A program made the translations under genes and the position numbers. DNA of 45,063 nt from Patescibacteria group bacterium (lineage in GTDB: Bacteria; Patescibacteriota; Minisyncoccia; UBA6257; 2-01-FULL-56-20): assembly GCA_038058095.1 (NCBI GenBank), contig JBBUBW010000012.1, positions 1 through 45,063 on the forward strand, written 5' to 3'. Below, piece by piece: positions 5,726 to 26,218 of this stretch. The first letter of the stretch is position 1. Every line of letters begins with the position of its first letter. The notes under the pieces are model-generated. The model was given only the letters and a program-made list of their open reading frames with translations, did not search any database and was not told the DNA's origin.

Positions 5726-6466
5726 ATGTTTGAAGACGGGAAGAAGGCGCTCGTGGTGGTGGCACATCCGGATGATGAGACGATTTGGATGGGAGGGACA
5801 ATTTTAATGAATCCACAGATTAGGTGGACGATTTTTTCGCTTTGTCGTGCAGATGATCGTAATAGGGCGCCAAAATTTAAAAAAGTTTGTAAATATTACG
5901 GAGCGCGAGGAATTATTTCGGACTTAGACGATGAAGAAATTTTGAATTTGCGCGAGAGTTTGCCAGAAATACGCCGTCGATTGTTGGATTTCTTTTCTAC
6001 TTTTCGGAACCGCGGTTCAATTTGCTCCAGCGGCAAATTGCCCGCTGCCTCTCAACGCGGCGACTCCGCGTTGCGGAGGCCAAGCTCGCCGCGTTTCCGA
6101 GAGCTTCCTCAAAGTAAAAAAGAAATCCAGCTCGATGCTGGTGGGTTTGATTATATTTTCACGCACGGTTATAATGGAGAGTACGGACATCCGCGGCATC
6201 GAGGTGTCAATCGGGTGGTTAGGGACTTAGTCGGCCGCGGAAAAATTAAAACTAAGCAGTTTTTCGCGTTCAGCTACAAGTTTGACGAGAAGAAAAATAT
6301 TTGCCGGCCTAAAGAGGCAGATGTTTTTTTAAAACTATCCCCTACTGCGCTAAGGGAGAAGAAAAAAATTATTAATGAGCTGTATGGATTTAAAAAATCA
6401 ACGTTTGAGTATAGGACTTTGTCGAGTGTTGAGAATTTAAAGTTGTTAAAACGTAAGTATTCCTAA
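5726..6466 (+). CDS. PIG-L/LmbE family deacetylase with an in-frame palindromic insertion
   Basis: VAHPDDE and THGYNGEYGHPRH metal-binding motifs; about 48 extra aa encoded by 5985-6129. Confidence 0.9.
   Translation: MFEDGKKALVVVAHPDDETIWMGGTILMNPQIRWTIFSLCRADDRNRAPKFKKVCKYYGARGIISDLDDEEILNLRESLPEIRRRLLDFFSTFRNRGSICSSGKLPAASQRGDSALRRPSSPRFRELPQSKKEIQLDAGGFDYIFTHGYNGEYGHPRHRGVNRVVRDLVGRGKIKTKQFFAFSYKFDEKKNICRPKEADVFLKLSPTALREKKKIINELYGFKKSTFEYRTLSSVENLKLLKRKYS
5985..6129 (+). repeat. Structured dispersed repeat element, copy 1 (intragenic, frame-preserving)
   Basis: Terminal inverted repeat TGGATTTCTTTT.TACTTT / AAAGTA.AAAAGAAATCCA enclosing nested stems homologous to 20759-20890 and 26077-26218. 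Confidence 0.85.
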
Positions 6467-6469
6467 GTT

Positions 6470-7615
6470 ATGAGATCGATTATTTTGTATTCTTACCCTC
6501 CGGAGCCGGATGGACTCTCCCAGCAGGGAGATATGCTCTATCGCGGAATGAAAGAAAATAGCGAAGAGGTTTGGCCCTGCCATCTTTCGAGTGAGTTTCA
6601 AAAGGAATGGATTTATAAACTTTATAAACCGCAGGTGGCGCTAGGAGTGGGTTTTTGGGGACATACGCAGGATTTAATCGAGCATCCGCAAAAATTCGGT
6701 GTTCAGCCAGTGCCGTGGCTTTTAGCTGACGGATGGGTGGCGAATTACCACGATAAAATCGGTTCTCTGCCTTTGGTTTTTACAACCAGCGATTGGGTTA
6801 AGAAAACTTTTGAACGTGACGGAGTGGATACGAAAAATTTTGTGACGGCGCACATTGGGCTTGAGCCGAATCTTTTTCGGCCGATACCGAAGACCGACCC
6901 GGGAGTGAAGCTAATTCGGGATATGGCTGGCGTGAGGGATGACGAGGTGATGATTTTGACAACCGGAGGAGATGTAACTTCAAAAGGGGCACAGGAGATT
7001 TTAAGGGCGTTAAAGAAGGTTGACCAGGAATTTAAAAATTGGAAATACGTTTGCAAAATTTGGGGTGGAGCGAGCGCGGATGACCATTATGACGACGAGA
7101 TGGCTTTAATTGAGGAATTAGGCGAATCAAAGGACAAGGTGGTTTACTTGGATGGCTCGATGTCACGGGAGTTTATGCCGTATTTGCTTTCGGCTTGCGA
7201 TATTTATGCCGCGCCATCTCGACTTGAGGGTTTTGGGATGGTTCAGGTGGAGGCAATGGCGTGCGGGAAGCCGGTGATTTCGATTGACGCGATGGGGCCG
7301 AAGGAAACCATTAAGCATGGCGAGACGGGATTTTTGGCAAAAGTAGCTTCGACGGTGGATTTAACTTCCGAGTGGGCGTACGTTGGGATGGGTTTTGAAG
7401 AGGACCATCGAATTGAATTCGATAAACCGAAAACGTTTGCCTATCGAGCGGACGTGGATGAGCTCGCAGAATATTTATTGAGGTTGCTTAAAGATCAGGA
7501 ATTACGCGAAAAAATGGGAAAAGCGGCGAGAGAACGTGCAGTTGAAGCTTTCGAATATCGTAAAGTCGCCAAGAGAATGGCGGATGTTATCAAGGAGAGG
7601 CTGAAGCTTTCTTAG
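6470..7615 (+). CDS. Glycosyltransferase family 4 (GT-B)
   Basis: DIYAAPSRLEGFGMVQVEAMACGKPVI EX7E motif. Confidence 0.93.
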   Translation: MRSIILYSYPPEPDGLSQQGDMLYRGMKENSEEVWPCHLSSEFQKEWIYKLYKPQVALGVGFWGHTQDLIEHPQKFGVQPVPWLLADGWVANYHDKIGSLPLVFTTSDWVKKTFERDGVDTKNFVTAHIGLEPNLFRPIPKTDPGVKLIRDMAGVRDDEVMILTTGGDVTSKGAQEILRALKKVDQEFKNWKYVCKIWGGASADDHYDDEMALIEELGESKDKVVYLDGSMSREFMPYLLSACDIYAAPSRLEGFGMVQVEAMACGKPVISIDAMGPKETIKHGETGFLAKVASTVDLTSEWAYVGMGFEEDHRIEFDKPKTFAYRADVDELAEYLLRLLKDQELREKMGKAARERAVEAFEYRKVAKRMADVIKERLKLS

Positions 7616-8613
7616 TTTTCTAACGTCGCCGTAGCTAGGCAACAACCCTGATCGGCGGAGCCATAATAAACTGATAACTTACGACCAATAACAACTGCGC
7701 CTTCGGGAAAGGTGACACGGCTAATGATGCCGTTTTTTTCGTATGATTTTTCGGGTTTTAGCAGATGATTTTTAGAACGCCAGATTATTTTTTTCGGATT
7801 TTTTAAATCGAGGAGTGCGGCGTCGATGGTCCACTCACGTTTTTTGGATTCACCACAATAGATTAAGAGCCAACCTTTTTTGGTTTTGATTGGCGGGGCA
7901 CCAACCTCGGGTCCGCGACAGGCGGTTTTGGACGGTTTAAGAAGAATATGCTTTTCTTTTTCCGTGAGGAAATTTTGCCAGAAGTTTTTTTGAGGTTTGA
8001 TTAAATCTTTGAGATTTTTAAATTTAGCGGCGAAAATAGTTGATTCGGGAAAGCCATGGTGGTCTAGTTTGTCGTTACTGATTTTAGTGCGTGCTTGTTT
8101 TGTAAGAAGCAGGCAGAATTTATTTTGAATTTTTTCAGGAAAGAAAGCGGCGGCTTTGAGGTAATCTTGGTCGGTTATAAAATTTGGGCCGACAATGCCG
8201 TACTTTTTTATTTTTCTGAAATCTTTAGTTTCTGCGAGAGCGATTCGGCATTTTAAAAATTTATTACCTTGGGAGATGGCGCTATAGAAGATGTAGTAAA
8301 TGTCCCCTATTTTGGTTACGCGAGGATCTTCACAGCCCAGTTTTTCCCAAACATGTTTGGGTTTAATTAATGGAATGGGGCGGACTTTAAAATGGACGCC
8401 GTCTCGGCTTTCGGCGTAGCCGATTGAGGACGTTCGCCATTCTTTCCATTTGCCAACGCCTTTGATTGGTTTCGCTTTACCGGTGGCGCGGAAAAGCATT
8501 ATGAATTTTCCGTTTTCATAAATGACGCACGGGTTAAAAATTCCGCTGGATTGCCAAGCGAGTTTGGGGTTGTGTTTGAGGATTGGGTTATTAGGGTGGC
8601 GAGTGAGTTTCAC
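7612..8613 (-). CDS. Glycoside hydrolase family 130 (beta-mannoside phosphorylase/mannosidase-like)
   Basis: NNPIL, FNP, GCEDPRV, PPIKTKKGWLLIY, VTFPEG, YYGSAD motifs; GTG start overlaps the upstream TAG. Confidence 0.9.
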   Translation of the reverse strand: MKLTRHPNNPILKHNPKLAWQSSGIFNPCVIYENGKFIMLFRATGKAKPIKGVGKWKEWRTSSIGYAESRDGVHFKVRPIPLIKPKHVWEKLGCEDPRVTKIGDIYYIFYSAISQGNKFLKCRIALAETKDFRKIKKYGIVGPNFITDQDYLKAAAFFPEKIQNKFCLLLTKQARTKISNDKLDHHGFPESTIFAAKFKNLKDLIKPQKNFWQNFLTEKEKHILLKPSKTACRGPEVGAPPIKTKKGWLLIYCGESKKREWTIDAALLDLKNPKKIIWRSKNHLLKPEKSYEKNGIISRVTFPEGAVVIGRKLSVYYGSADQGCCLATATLEN

Positions 8614-25475: not shown

Positions 25476-26074
25476 ATTTACCGCAACCAATTCGAAAATT
25501 GGCCGACCATTTGGCGGATTTGCCATCAATTGGACCGAGGCAAGCCCTGCGGCTGGTTTTCTATTTTTTAAGTCAAGGGAAGAATGAGATGAACGAGTTG
25601 GCACGAAGCATCGACGACTTAAGCGGTTTAAAACTCTGCTCCAATTGTTTTTTTGTTCATCAGAACCAAGGCGGGCTTTGTGATATTTGCGGGGATAAAA
25701 ATCGCCGAAAGGATTTAATCGCTATTATAGAAAAGGAAACGGACCTGCTTTCGATTGAAAGTACGCGAAAATTCCACGGGCGGTATTTTATTTTGGGACC
25801 AATCCCTAAAACCGGCGTACTTGAAGATTGGCAGAAGTTAAGAGTTCAAGTATTGAAAGCTTTTATTAAAAATGAAATTTCCCAGCAGGCGGAAGAAATT
25901 ATTTTGGCGTTTAGCCCGACATCAAACGGAGACTTTAACTCTTCGCTTTTAATCAAGGAGCTATCCCCTTTTACTAAAAAGATCACTCGCTTAGGGCGAG
26001 GATTGCCGACGGGGGGCGAGATTGAATTTGCGGATGACGAAACTTTGGGAGAGGCGCTTGCTAAGAGGAGCTAG
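25472..26074 (+). CDS. recR: Recombination mediator RecR
   Basis: LPSIGPR HhH, C4 zinc finger, Toprim, GLPTGGEIEFAD; ATGA overlap with dnaB. Confidence 0.96.
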   Translation: MNLPQPIRKLADHLADLPSIGPRQALRLVFYFLSQGKNEMNELARSIDDLSGLKLCSNCFFVHQNQGGLCDICGDKNRRKDLIAIIEKETDLLSIESTRKFHGRYFILGPIPKTGVLEDWQKLRVQVLKAFIKNEISQQAEEIILAFSPTSNGDFNSSLLIKELSPFTKKITRLGRGLPTGGEIEFADDETLGEALAKRS

Positions 26075-26076
26075 GT

Positions 26077-26218
26077 TTAATTTCGATTTCGCACAAAAAC
26101 ACGCTATCAATTTTCCCAGCGAGAAAATTGCGCTCGCTCTCGGCCTTGCTCTCCCGTTGAAACGGGAACCATGCCCGCTCGGCCTGCGAGACGGTCTTCT
26201 TAGCGAAATCGAAATTAA
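26077..26218 (+). repeat. Structured dispersed repeat element, copy 3 (diverged)
   Basis: Perfect 16-bp terminal inverted repeat TTAATTTCGATTTCGC/GCGAAATCGAAATTAA; internal CAATTTTC-CCAGCGA-GAAAATTG and TCCCG-TTGAAA-CGGGA-ACCATGC. Confidence 0.8.

Follow-up and report, generated by a model that had tools for sequence, protein, structure and literature searches.

A three-way-junction repeat family in Patescibacteria that looks like a new relative in behaviour of the RPE and REPIN elements

The window analysed here is a 45,063-nt stretch of DNA (positions 1-45,063 of contig JBBUBW010000012.1) from a 0.76-Mb genome of a Patescibacteria group bacterium (GCA_038058095.1), and it raises the question of what three strongly folding segments of similar layout are doing within it. 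A sequence-only reading had described them as three copies, in one orientation, of an unrecognised motif under selection for structure that disperses, for example as a non-autonomous mobile element. The three copies were found on the plus strand (Table 1), P1 of copy 1 spanning 5983-6131 rather than 5985-6129 as first given, and the stem pairs and conserved loops quoted for them were correct. We consider it probable that they belong to a family of small non-autonomous mobile DNA elements whose spread depends on a conserved fold and not on sequence. The family looks like a new RPE/REPIN-like set of structured repeats, RPE and REPINs being the closest to it in behaviour.

Table 1. Copies of the element in the window and their parts
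Feature	Positions	Strand	Description
Copy 1	5983..6131	+	In frame within PIG-L family deacetylase gene; R2 132 bits; limits from P1 pairing
Copy 1 host ORF	5726..6466	+	246 aa, Pfam PIG-L PF02585
Copy 2	20759..20890	+	Top family-model score: R2 135.1 bits, E 4.7e-40
Copy 2 P1 5' arm	20759..20775	+	Pairs with 20874-20890; 17 bp, perfect
Copy 2 P1 3' arm	20874..20890	+	Pairs with 20759-20775
Copy 2 arm P2/P2a	20778..20811	+	GGTTG/CAACC, TTC bulge, inner stem, 7-nt loop TCCTGCG at 20792-20798
Copy 2 arm P3/P3a/P3b	20815..20872	+	CTCTC/GAGAG, 10-bp variable stem, CTCCG/CGGAG hairpin
Copy 2 unpaired parts of P3 arm		+	One-sided internal loop GCCAAGC 20848-20854; TCC bulge 20865-20867
Copy 3	26077..26218	+	Divergent subfamily: loop CCCAGCG, internal loop ACCATGC; 80.3 bits

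Fold and covariation

The element is about 135 to 150 bp long. A long terminal stem, P1 (17 to 25 bp), closes a three-way junction with two arms, in which the loops UCCAGCG and ACCAAGC and the junction or unpaired bases CC, UGC and UCC are conserved, giving about 30 near-invariant unpaired bases in total. Outside P1 lie a 3 x 3 pyrimidine internal loop and a short outer helix, P0; of 109 copies, 55 had Watson-Crick pairing at position 4 past P1 and 42 at position 5, compared to an expected 29 and 28 (0/1000 shuffles). Scored against dinucleotide shuffles, copies 1, 2 and 3 of the window gave fold z values of -7.7, -7.1 and -4.2 on the plus strand and -7.2, -6.7 and -4.7 on the minus strand.

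We used nhmmer with the three window copies (E < 1e-4), which returned 8 further copies in the same genome, followed by covariance models (including the model R2), which brought the total there to 12 copies. The shared orientation noted earlier applies to the three window copies; genome-wide, both strands are used. Covariation was assessed on 42 copies from 40 loci. Standard pairs filled 91.5% of the pair cells, compared to 61.0% after shuffling (0 of 500 shuffles reached 91.5%) and to at most 50.6% when the partners were slid. Two-sided compensatory changes were seen in 40 of the 42 pairs, distributed over P1 (9/9 modelled pairs), helix 2 (P2/P2a; 12/13) and helices 3-5 (P3/P3a/P3b; 19/20), and 39 of 42 pairs were compensated among the 12 own-genome copies. 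The claim that structure rather than sequence is conserved was therefore upheld in this larger alignment. The terminal stems, which had been taken as unrelated between copies, are not wholly so, the 5' arm of P1 being T-rich across the family with a loose consensus near AGYTTTCTNTTTTTGAGAA.

Pair types were tallied over 130 copies (5146 pair cells), and included 4653 Watson-Crick, 101 G.U and 103 A.C pairs. The G.U and A.C counts were 64 vs 49 in sense copies and 11 vs 9 in antisense copies, indicating no asymmetry. G.U pairs being no commoner than A.C pairs argues against long RNA-level selection in place, and the absence of a G.U excess on either strand points to a constraint that is equal on both strands, either at the DNA level or in young copies.

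Spread and sites of insertion

Copy number was compared across 41 related genomes, a phylum-wide sample of 151 genomes and a set of Omnitrophota-labelled genomes. The relatives carried 0 to 34 copies each, with 25 of 41 positive, 16 of 41 free of the element and a maximum load of 34 copies in 0.8 Mb. Distribution over the phylum was patchy (13/151), and each of five Omnitrophota-labelled genomes (1.4-2.7 Mb) had 6 to 14 copies on many contigs. The hosts are groundwater "CPR" bacteria with tiny genomes. Copies occur singly at scattered places, flanked by housekeeping genes.

The three window copies occupy different settings. Copy 1 is translated within the PIG-L ORF as about 48 residues (LDFFSTFRNRGS...KKEIQ). 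Copy 2 lies in the spacer of two divergent genes (19967-20665, minus strand; 20964-21869, plus strand), beside a leftward promoter-like site whose -35 element, at 20737-20732, is 21 nt from P1. Copy 3 begins 3 nt past the stop codon (26072-26074) of the ORF at 25472-26074; copies 81-83% identical to it occur at other loci of a related genome (G003), and its subfamily forms the outer shell in nested copies.

Across the genomes, the copies are shown inserting at gene ends, behind tRNA genes, within other copies and in frame within genes. Genomes G000 and G003 carry the insert at the PIG-L site, whereas that site is empty in G002 and G004; the distance between the coding motifs ESLPEI and FTHxYNGEYGH is 99 nt in G002 and G004, 237 nt in the window genome and 279 nt in G003. 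For the filled/empty comparison of the window's own copies, the nearest pairs share about 70% nucleotide identity at best, and no read or contig was found that skips a copy. At the site downstream of one gene, compared over six loci, the stems of the copies are unrelated though their flanks are 73-96% alike (87% upstream and 96% downstream for loci L042 and L112). Near-identical copy pairs exist inside one genome (97% over 144 and 180 nt), and recent duplicates have the common ends CGCTCG...CTCGCT. Nested copies were seen at five loci, the inner copy sitting at the P3b position of the outer copy in opposite orientation. We verified six in-frame insertions in real genes: PIG-L (window), MnmA (twice), Aminotran_5, TGT and a ComF-like gene. 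When 10 ORFs spanning a copy were examined, 5 had Pfam domains on both sides, with copies in both orientations, 1 (ParB) was ambiguous and 4 had no domain; two verified intragenic copies are antisense. Together, the spread in copy number, the filled and empty sites, the different variants per site, the near-identical pairs, the nesting and the in-frame insertions bear out the earlier suggestion of a motif that disperses like a non-autonomous mobile element.

Matched flanks of the copies had a longest common word of 3.37 nt, compared to 2.84 +/- 0.09 for mismatched flanks, and identical 3-mers in 14 of 109 cases vs 4.3. Such an excess could come from a target-site duplication, but flank positions 4-5 pair with each other across the symmetric loop and so imitate a short direct repeat, and the P0 helix with this loop accounts for both values equally well.

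Comparison with known families and mobility genes

The fold, unrecognised at the outset, gave no family match in Rfam 15. At gathering thresholds the whole window yielded one tRNA alone (15333-15406) and nine own-genome loci yielded tRNAs alone; copy 1 left the element unmatched at E up to 10, and five other loci were compared both at the gathering threshold and at E up to 1, with tRNAs and two chance matches outside the element as the outcome. Hammerhead, twister, twister-sister, hatchet, pistol, HDV-like, 6S, SRP, RNase P and tmRNA were among the candidates rejected for want of an Rfam 15 match. Our literature searches turned up no account of the element, and the name Patescibacteria has no occurrence in a MITE/RPE review (PMC10969869).

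Mobility genes were searched with Y1_Tnp, RVT_1, TnpB, IS110 and the integron integrase model TIGR02249. The statement that the window holds no transposase stands for Y1_Tnp, RVT_1, TnpB and IS110, which had no match on the window's contig, and its scope is those four families. No mobilising enzyme was found among the families searched, and the presence of Y1, RT, TnpB, IS110 or IntI does not track the element. Y1_Tnp occurs in 11 of 41 relatives (10/25 element-bearing, 1/16 element-free) and RVT_1 in 24 of 41 (17/25 and 7/16), neither generally adjoining the copies. TnpB was above cut-off in 0/41 and IS110 in 2/41, the relatives being otherwise nearly IS-free. Matches to TIGR02249 were ordinary Xer-like recombinases, none of the 41 genomes exceeding its cut-off. 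The anticipated enrichment of HUH, RT or other mobility genes beside the copies was not borne out: 509 flanking ORFs included no recurring transposase-like neighbour, and longer versions of the element that carry an ORF were not seen. The own-genome RT genes lie on contigs C29 and C9, distant from every copy; a group II intron, retron or DGR-linked RNA was rejected because the copies generally lack the adjoining RT gene expected of it.

Among the most similar known systems is the RPE of Rickettsia, which is also about 100-150 bp, strongly self-pairing, found in a small reduced genome and devoid of a transposase of its own. RPEs are described as having entered numerous unrelated housekeeping genes in frame, where they are translated as added peptide (PMC10969869), and the six verified cases here show the same trait, a likeness of behaviour. 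However, an RPE is a simple palindrome with conserved sequence, whereas the present element folds into a three-way junction whose loops are invariant and whose stems covary throughout; its hosts are Patescibacteria and Omnitrophota-labelled genomes instead of Rickettsia, and most of its copies are intergenic, close behind stop codons. REPs and REPINs are likewise non-autonomous, hairpin-forming and intergenic, with tens of copies per genome; their movement is thought to take place as a folded single strand on which a trans-acting Y1 (HUH) enzyme works (PMC3116915, PMC3337134). A REPIN joins two short REP hairpins of conserved sequence and is linked to a single RAYT gene that has its own REPs on either side, which is not so here. 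The own-genome RAYT-like gene, a 224-aa Y1-like ORF, is flanked by an unrelated 31-nt palindrome with 3 copies, all local, and R2 had no match beside three Y1 genes (best E 0.073). A REPIN/RAYT system was rejected on this different palindrome and on the limited occurrence of Y1 in element-bearing genomes. Bacterial MITEs (Correia, ERIC, QMITE) are also small, with terminal inverted repeats forming a long stem, and are described as giving stable structures in transcripts, as fusing in frame with genes on occasion and as possibly acting like terminators (PMC10969869). The terminal repeats of a MITE preserve the sequence of those of its parent IS and direct-repeat duplications are seen, whereas the terminal stem here covaries like the inner stems; with no parent IS among the families searched, a MITE of a parent IS was rejected.

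Alternative explanations and significance

If the element is a fold-dependent mobile DNA, as we favour, its fold would be recognised by a trans-acting enzyme in a single-stranded intermediate, for which DNA is likelier than RNA. Inserted copies would then decay neutrally and be replaced by new insertions at preferred sites; the intragenic copies are read through as about 45-50 added residues. Sense copies right behind a stop codon might in addition double as mRNA 3'-end structure, a step that we advance with less assurance. The latter is the core of another, unlikely explanation, namely that the element is a host cis-acting RNA module, a 3'-end-forming, terminating, stabilising or processing structure (e.g., an RNase III site in P1) recruited repeatedly behind genes and tRNAs, with mobility as its supply only. 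In co-directional gene pairs, sense copies outnumbered antisense copies (41 vs 20) and began a median of 8 nt after the upstream stop (28/41 within 23 nt), compared to 111 nt for antisense copies (3/20). The 5' end lay within 23 nt of an upstream stop in 41 of 59 cases, while the 3' end was equally near an opposite-strand stop in 5 of 39, and this strand-specific spacing suggests a role in the transcript. Of the 12 own-genome copies, one begins 1 nt past a tRNA-Gly gene and another 6 nt past a weak tRNA match; positions upstream of mraZ and around rplU recur; and the U.G pair closing the P2a loop is retained on the plus strand in 37 of 42 copies. Between G000 and G003, the PIG-L copies show differences at 12 compensated pairs and 1 G.U pair with 0 broken, which under vertical descent would mean in-place selection for the fold, something a purely selfish, decaying element does not predict. 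On the other hand, 20 of 102 copies not flagged inside an ORF are antisense to both neighbours, as are the two verified intragenic copies to their genes, no U-tract follows P1, and G.U pairs do not exceed A.C pairs, unlike in RNAs kept by selection. Same-site copies in close relatives are different variants and not conserved orthologues, and the 16 element-free relatives also count against a host module.

The near-invariant junction bases, as in small ribozymes, and the joining of the 5' and 3' ends by P1 would suit an RNA-borne element, i.e., a small self-cleaving or self-ligating ribozyme or a retrozyme-like non-autonomous retroelement copied by resident reverse transcriptases and re-inserted. 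RVT_1 is present in all 7 genomes of the genus, and in G021 a copy has an RT gene about 180 nt away, but 8 element-bearing genomes, including ones with 8-11 copies, have no RT, 7 RT-bearing genomes have no element, and no Rfam ribozyme matched. Given also the lack of G.U tolerance, and because intragenic copies preserve the reading frame, which would be needless if they were spliced, we hold this to be highly improbable. About equally little credit goes to a folded-DNA recombination site like an integron attC or the ends of IS200/IS605, in which P0, the internal loop and P1 would be protein-bound, the junction would be the variable terminal structure and a tyrosine recombinase or HUH enzyme would act. 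Integron attC sites are about 57 to 141 nt long, and their stems typically carry extrahelical bases. Like them, the element appears recognised by fold and not sequence, stands directly behind co-oriented stop codons and combines a basal helix, an unpaired (here symmetric) spacer, a long stem and a terminal structure; its pairing is strand-symmetric, and a single Xer-like tyrosine recombinase was matched in 39 of 41 genomes, alongside the Y1 enzymes. Its terminal structure, however, has invariant loops, P1 appears free of such extrahelical bases, and the intragenic copies, housekeeping neighbours and dispersed single copies differ from cassette arrays. With no cassette arrays and no integron integrase in any of the 41 genomes, an integron attC was rejected, and the Y1 enzymes do not follow the element's distribution.

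A more far-reaching form of the mobile-element reading, which we regard as doubtful, is a new class of fold-guided, site-choosing element. The junction would then be the recognition or catalytic core of a novel transposition or recombination system, possibly using a housekeeping enzyme such as the Xer-like recombinase, or a ribozyme. The sites chosen would be those directly behind stop codons and tRNAs and the P3b hairpin of other copies, the element would cross between Patescibacteria and Omnitrophota, and sense copies may have taken the place of ordinary terminators in these genomes.

Few known genomes are as small and streamlined as those of CPR/Patescibacteria, and the ones searched are nearly without matches to the four mobility-gene families, yet hold up to 34 copies of the element, which interrupts or lengthens essential proteins (MnmA, TGT and a cysteine-desulfurase-like enzyme) and is found at many gene 3' ends. 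It is a marker by which gene flow between Omnitrophota and the CPR lineages can be followed and, like the RPEs of Rickettsia, a natural supplier of inserted peptides to reduced proteomes; it also gives very clean covariation data for a three-way junction and a route to a mobilising enzyme missed by ordinary transposase searches. Annotation is affected as well, contigs of element-bearing organisms being broken at the element and ORFs being extended or truncated by it.

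Fold of the repeat family

The sequence-only reading had named three stretches of the window as copies of one multi-stem element. All three are present (Table) and, whichever strand was taken, every one folded far better than its shuffles did (z from -4.2 to -7.7). A profile of these copies found eight more in the genome from which the window comes (758,531 bases, 50 contigs), and a search of that genome with two covariance models, R1 and R2, an approach proposed with the earlier reading, gave 12 copies in total, on both strands. The claim that structure, not sequence, is conserved was borne out by RNAalifold, which predicted 42 pairs from the 12 copies with a compensated change in 39 of them. 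We then used an alignment of 42 copies (the own-genome copies and 28 loci of relatives), which was fitted to the covariance model and is somewhat biased to structure, a bias that the MAFFT-based 12-copy result does not carry. Here, 40 of the 42 pairs had changes on both sides, the covariation score was 0.78 versus 0.23, and standard pairs filled 91.5% of pair cells compared to 61.0% after shuffling, with none of 500 shuffles reaching 91.5%; when the partners were slid by 1 to 3 columns, standard pairs fell to at most 50.6%.

The fold is a three-way junction closed by a terminal stem of 17 to 25 bp (P1), whose 5' arm is rich in T and whose 3' arm is rich in A. Junction bases CC lead into arm P2/P2a, in which UU(C) is bulged and UCCAGCG forms the loop, and the next junction, UGC, leads to arm P3/P3a/P3b, with a UCC bulge and a one-sided internal loop, (A/G)CCAAGC. 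Outside P1 lies a mostly pyrimidine 3x3 internal loop and then a short outer helix, P0; no U-tract follows P1. Among 109 copies, Watson-Crick pairs occurred in 55 at flank position 4 and in 42 at position 5, compared to 29 and 28 expected, and 0 of 1000 shuffles reached either count. These 109 are the copies with a P1 score of 10 or more among 128 distinct ones, the rows of L025 and L073 (both copies) in the full set of 130 being the same DNA twice.

Pairing of the loop AGCG(R) with flanking CGCU was considered and dropped because the A/G of the loop and the flank type (TCGCT or TCCGCT) vary independently. No covariation was observed between the loop (UCCWGCG) and the bulge (CCNAGC), and TCGCT, considered as a special 5'-UTR motif, is abundant throughout the genome. 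A K-turn or hammerhead core was absent by eye and from Rfam hits. In the comparison with Rfam that the sequence-only reading had suggested, every family failed to match the element: a tRNA was the sole match of Rfam 15 in the whole window at gathering scores, and copy 1 had no match at E up to 10. At this tRNA gene, which has no link to the element, coverage by public metagenome contigs is 30 to 70 times that of the DNA around it, the gene's sequence being common to many organisms.

Table. Copies and other features of the window and its genome, with further genes holding in-frame copies
Feature	Location	Strand	Observation
Copy 1	window 5983-6131	+	paired extent; inside ORF 5726-6466
Host ORF of copy 1	window 5726-6466		PIG-L family deacetylase (Pfam PF02585, E 2.7e-8)
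Copy 2	window 20759-20890	+	spacer of divergent genes; 21 nt from -35 box of leftward promoter-like site
Copy 3	window 26077-26218	+	starts 3 nt past stop codon of ORF 25472-26074
tRNA gene	window 15333-15406	-	Rfam 70.9 bits
Stretch of ~40 nt	window 20663-20707		directly upstream of minus-strand gene 19967-20665
tRNA-like stretch	L018:1646-1717 (own genome, contig C3)	-	directly before the C3 copy; 29.6 bits (cut-off 29), uncalled by ARAGORN
TGTGGAT / TGGGGATAAC box cluster	C45:7941-8010 (own genome)		directly left of copy 7807-7940, which precedes mraZ; DnaA-box-like on other strand
Y1-like ORF, 224 aa	C4:45787-46461 (L247:988-1662), own genome	-	Y1/HUH motif NHYHLL
RVT_1 genes	C29:4192-4803 and C9:37885-38493, own genome		about 320-360 aa
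LAGLIDADG-like ORF	L123:1456-2091		motif ILIGCILGDAYI
MnmA			in-frame copy, Pfam both sides; two genomes, same position
Aminotran_5			in-frame copy, Pfam both sides
TGT			in-frame copy, antisense to element, Pfam both sides
ComF-like phosphoribosyltransferase			in-frame copy, antisense to element, Pfam both sides

Taxonomic spread and position relative to genes

Of 41 genomes in the order, the own genome among them, 25 gave R2 matches, with 1 to 34 per genome; the positives include 18 of the 24 further genomes of the family and 6 of the 16 that belong to other families. Under stricter filters, an even sample of the phylum gave 13 positives in 151 genomes, again including the own genome. A strict DNA pattern requiring TCCAGCG, CCAAGC and YTSCGNNAGC, and therefore favouring the canonical subfamily, was found in at least 118 stretches of species-representative genomes and in no IMG/VR viral contig. 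Among the 80 matching loci listed, 77 had a strong R2 match; the three without one (two Gluconobacter, one Paenibacillus) were chance pattern hits. According to record titles, the listed matches span numerous lineages of Patescibacteria, among them Lipton-, Niyogi-, Colwell-, Wolfe-, Jorgensen-, Magasanik- and Peregrinibacteria, Paceibacterota and Minisyncoccia, together with MAGs labelled Saccharibacteria and six titled Candidatus Omnitrophota. Mis-binning of a single contig does not explain the Omnitrophota copies, since five genomes so labelled (1.4 to 2.7 Mb) have 6 to 14 matches each, on many contigs.

The position of copies relative to genes differs with their orientation. Positional counts came from a crude ORF caller (longest ORFs of at least 90 aa, greedy), and between co-directional genes it gave 41 sense and 20 antisense copies. 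For sense copies the median distance from the upstream gene's stop codon to the start of the copy was 8 nt, and 28 of 41 began no more than 23 nt past it; for antisense copies the median was 111 nt, with 3 of 20 no more than 23 nt away. Between convergent genes, the 5' end was at most 19 nt from the same-strand stop in 11 of 15 cases, with the 3' end far from the other gene. Pooled, the 5' end was near a same-strand stop in 41 of 59 cases and the 3' end near an opposite-strand stop in 5 of 39. The stop codon was considered as part of the element; a stop triplet within -14 to -3 is a feature of 36 of 52 sense copies and of just 4 of 18 antisense ones, and therefore belongs to the host gene. Of the 12 own-genome copies, one begins 1 nt after a tRNA-Gly gene and another 6 nt after a weak tRNA match. 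The tRNA-like stretch before the C3 copy is perhaps a degenerate tRNA, or else the tRNA-like terminus of a different RNA.

Sequences left of many copies, TGTGGATAAC/TGGGGATAAC and TGTCAAGGG, were at first assigned to the element or to its target. The latter is the -35 box of leftward promoters, and the TGTGGATAAC/TGGGGATAAC motif recurs upstream of mraZ and elsewhere; TGTGGATAAC also lies left of copies at several non-orthologous loci of other genomes and is common to two copies of the relative G007. The stretch at 20663-20707 is a second, short repeat or a shared leader: more than ten scattered loci of another relative, G004, match it at 81 to 94% identity, and a similar word, AATACGGATTTATTACGAATATAC, is present on own-genome contig C3.

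Probable mobility and the level at which the fold may act

Comparison of PIG-L orthologues revealed filled and empty sites. The distance between the conserved motifs ESLPEI and FTHxYNGEYGH was 99 nt in G002 and G004, where the element is absent, and 237 and 279 nt with an in-frame element in the own genome (G000) and in G003, respectively. The G006 orthologue (L054, on G006:C9) had 156 nt between the motifs, with a different 57-nt in-frame insert holding the hairpin CTCCGAC...GTCGGAG, possibly a remnant of an old copy. Across the collection, 28 of 130 copies were flagged inside an ORF. Of ten long spanning ORFs checked, five had Pfam domains on both sides of the copy, which keeps the reading frame; together with the PIG-L gene of the window these are six cases. 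In the remainder, ParB was ambiguous and four lacked a domain.

At six loci a copy stands 8 nt past the stop codon of the same gene; all stems differ and each copy is well paired. Between two of these, L042 and L112, identity is 87% over 197 columns upstream and 96% over 189 columns downstream, and only 76% across the element, counting alignable columns alone. Elements this unlike between flanks this alike exceed gradual change, so the site was filled independently or refilled; an empty counterpart was not found in the own genome. Copy pairs within G003 and within G007 are 97% identical over 144 and 180 nt, with similarity extending from about CGCTCG and P1 through the 3' arm of P1 and CTCGCT. 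Five loci in different lineages, one Omnitrophota-labelled, had conserved flanks (GCGGGCAnGG ... GAGCGAGG ... hairpin loop TCGCTGG) that suggested P12 of RNase P, with no Rfam match at gathering scores or E of at most 1. These flanks are the reverse strand of an outer element of the divergent copy-3 type, and the loci are therefore nested copies, with a canonical copy in opposite orientation at the place of the P3b hairpin. Filled and empty sites, variants at one site, recent pairs, nesting and intragenic copies all support the mobile-element option raised from the sequence alone, and we regard the element as probably mobile DNA. Contigs from four public DNA runs had no joint skipping a copy, and contigs of these runs terminate at copy 1.

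The main rival is a host RNA module at gene ends, which may hold as well for the sense copies. A merely tolerated space would treat both orientations alike; the stop-codon rule thus indicates either oriented insertion at gene ends or sense copies that serve as transcript 3'-end structure, antisense copies leaving room for the gene's own terminator. RNAs kept by selection tolerate G.U pairs but not A.C mismatches. Among 5146 pair cells in 130 copies, 4653 were Watson-Crick, 101 G.U and 103 A.C; the ratio was 64 to 49 in sense and 11 to 9 in antisense copies, and an earlier count on 42 copies gave 46 to 31. As the two classes are about equal, the constraint is symmetric between strands, and the mismatches resemble neutral transitions that arose after insertion of a perfect copy. 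This symmetry favours a fold needed while the element spreads, be it on single-stranded DNA or on both strands, with copies afterwards decaying and being replaced. Against such a DNA-level reading, 37 of 42 copies keep the U.G pair that closes the P2a loop, and a comparison of the PIG-L copies in G000 and G003 shows 12 compensated pairs, one G.U and no broken pair; the latter difference reflects either selection on the fold in place or two separate insertions.

Candidate mobilising enzymes and known repeat systems

HUH or RT genes had been envisaged as possible neighbours. The recurrent genes among 509 flanking ORFs were only housekeeping ones (rplU, mraZ/rsmH, groEL, PNPase, EF-G, secA, hpf and murB), and no fixed companion was found among them. 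We searched the 41 genomes of the order for Y1_Tnp, RVT_1, TnpB, IS110 and integron integrase. Y1_Tnp was found in 11 (10 of the 25 genomes that carry the element and 1 of the other 16), RVT_1 in 24 (17 of 25 and 7 of 16) and IS110 in two, and neither TnpB nor integron integrase passed the cut-off in any of the 41; a single Xer-like recombinase was matched in 39. Matched flanks share more than mismatched ones, as a target-site duplication would give, but P0 with the symmetric loop yields the same signal.

In behaviour, the closest system is that of the Rickettsia palindromic elements (RPEs), which, as described in a MITE review, are about 150 bp long, have no transposase of their own and include many in-frame insertions in metabolic genes (PMC10969869). 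REPINs with their Y1 transposases (RAYTs) come next. When tested for membership of known groups, the element did not qualify as REPIN/RAYT, as a MITE with a parent IS, as integron attC or as an RT-linked RNA, nor as a member of any Rfam family. Titles and abstract openings on repeats, MITEs and structured RNAs of CPR/Patescibacteria describe no such element, and the part of the MITE review consulted (PMC10969869) makes no mention of Patescibacteria. The original observation is confirmed, and its interpretation is supported as far as it names a mobile element. We regard the family as a new interspersed repeat of RPE/REPIN/MITE-like kind, defined by its fold and present across phyla. Its interest lies in how it is mobilised and in the strand-specific stop-codon rule.

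The Y1-like ORF of the own genome has a 31-nt palindrome with core AAGGACGTCNGACGTCCTT on either side, and the three genome copies of this palindrome are all at this gene. The ORF is RAYT-like and its hairpins, which are REP-like, have no relation to the three-way-junction element; R2 had no match beside three Y1 genes. The two RVT_1 genes, of a kind present in 19 of the 24 other genomes of the family, are possibly diversity-generating retroelements. ORFs with the LAGLIDADG-like motif lie within 1 to 1.2 kb of copies at L123, L034 and L042, and are probably homing endonucleases of unrelated introns.
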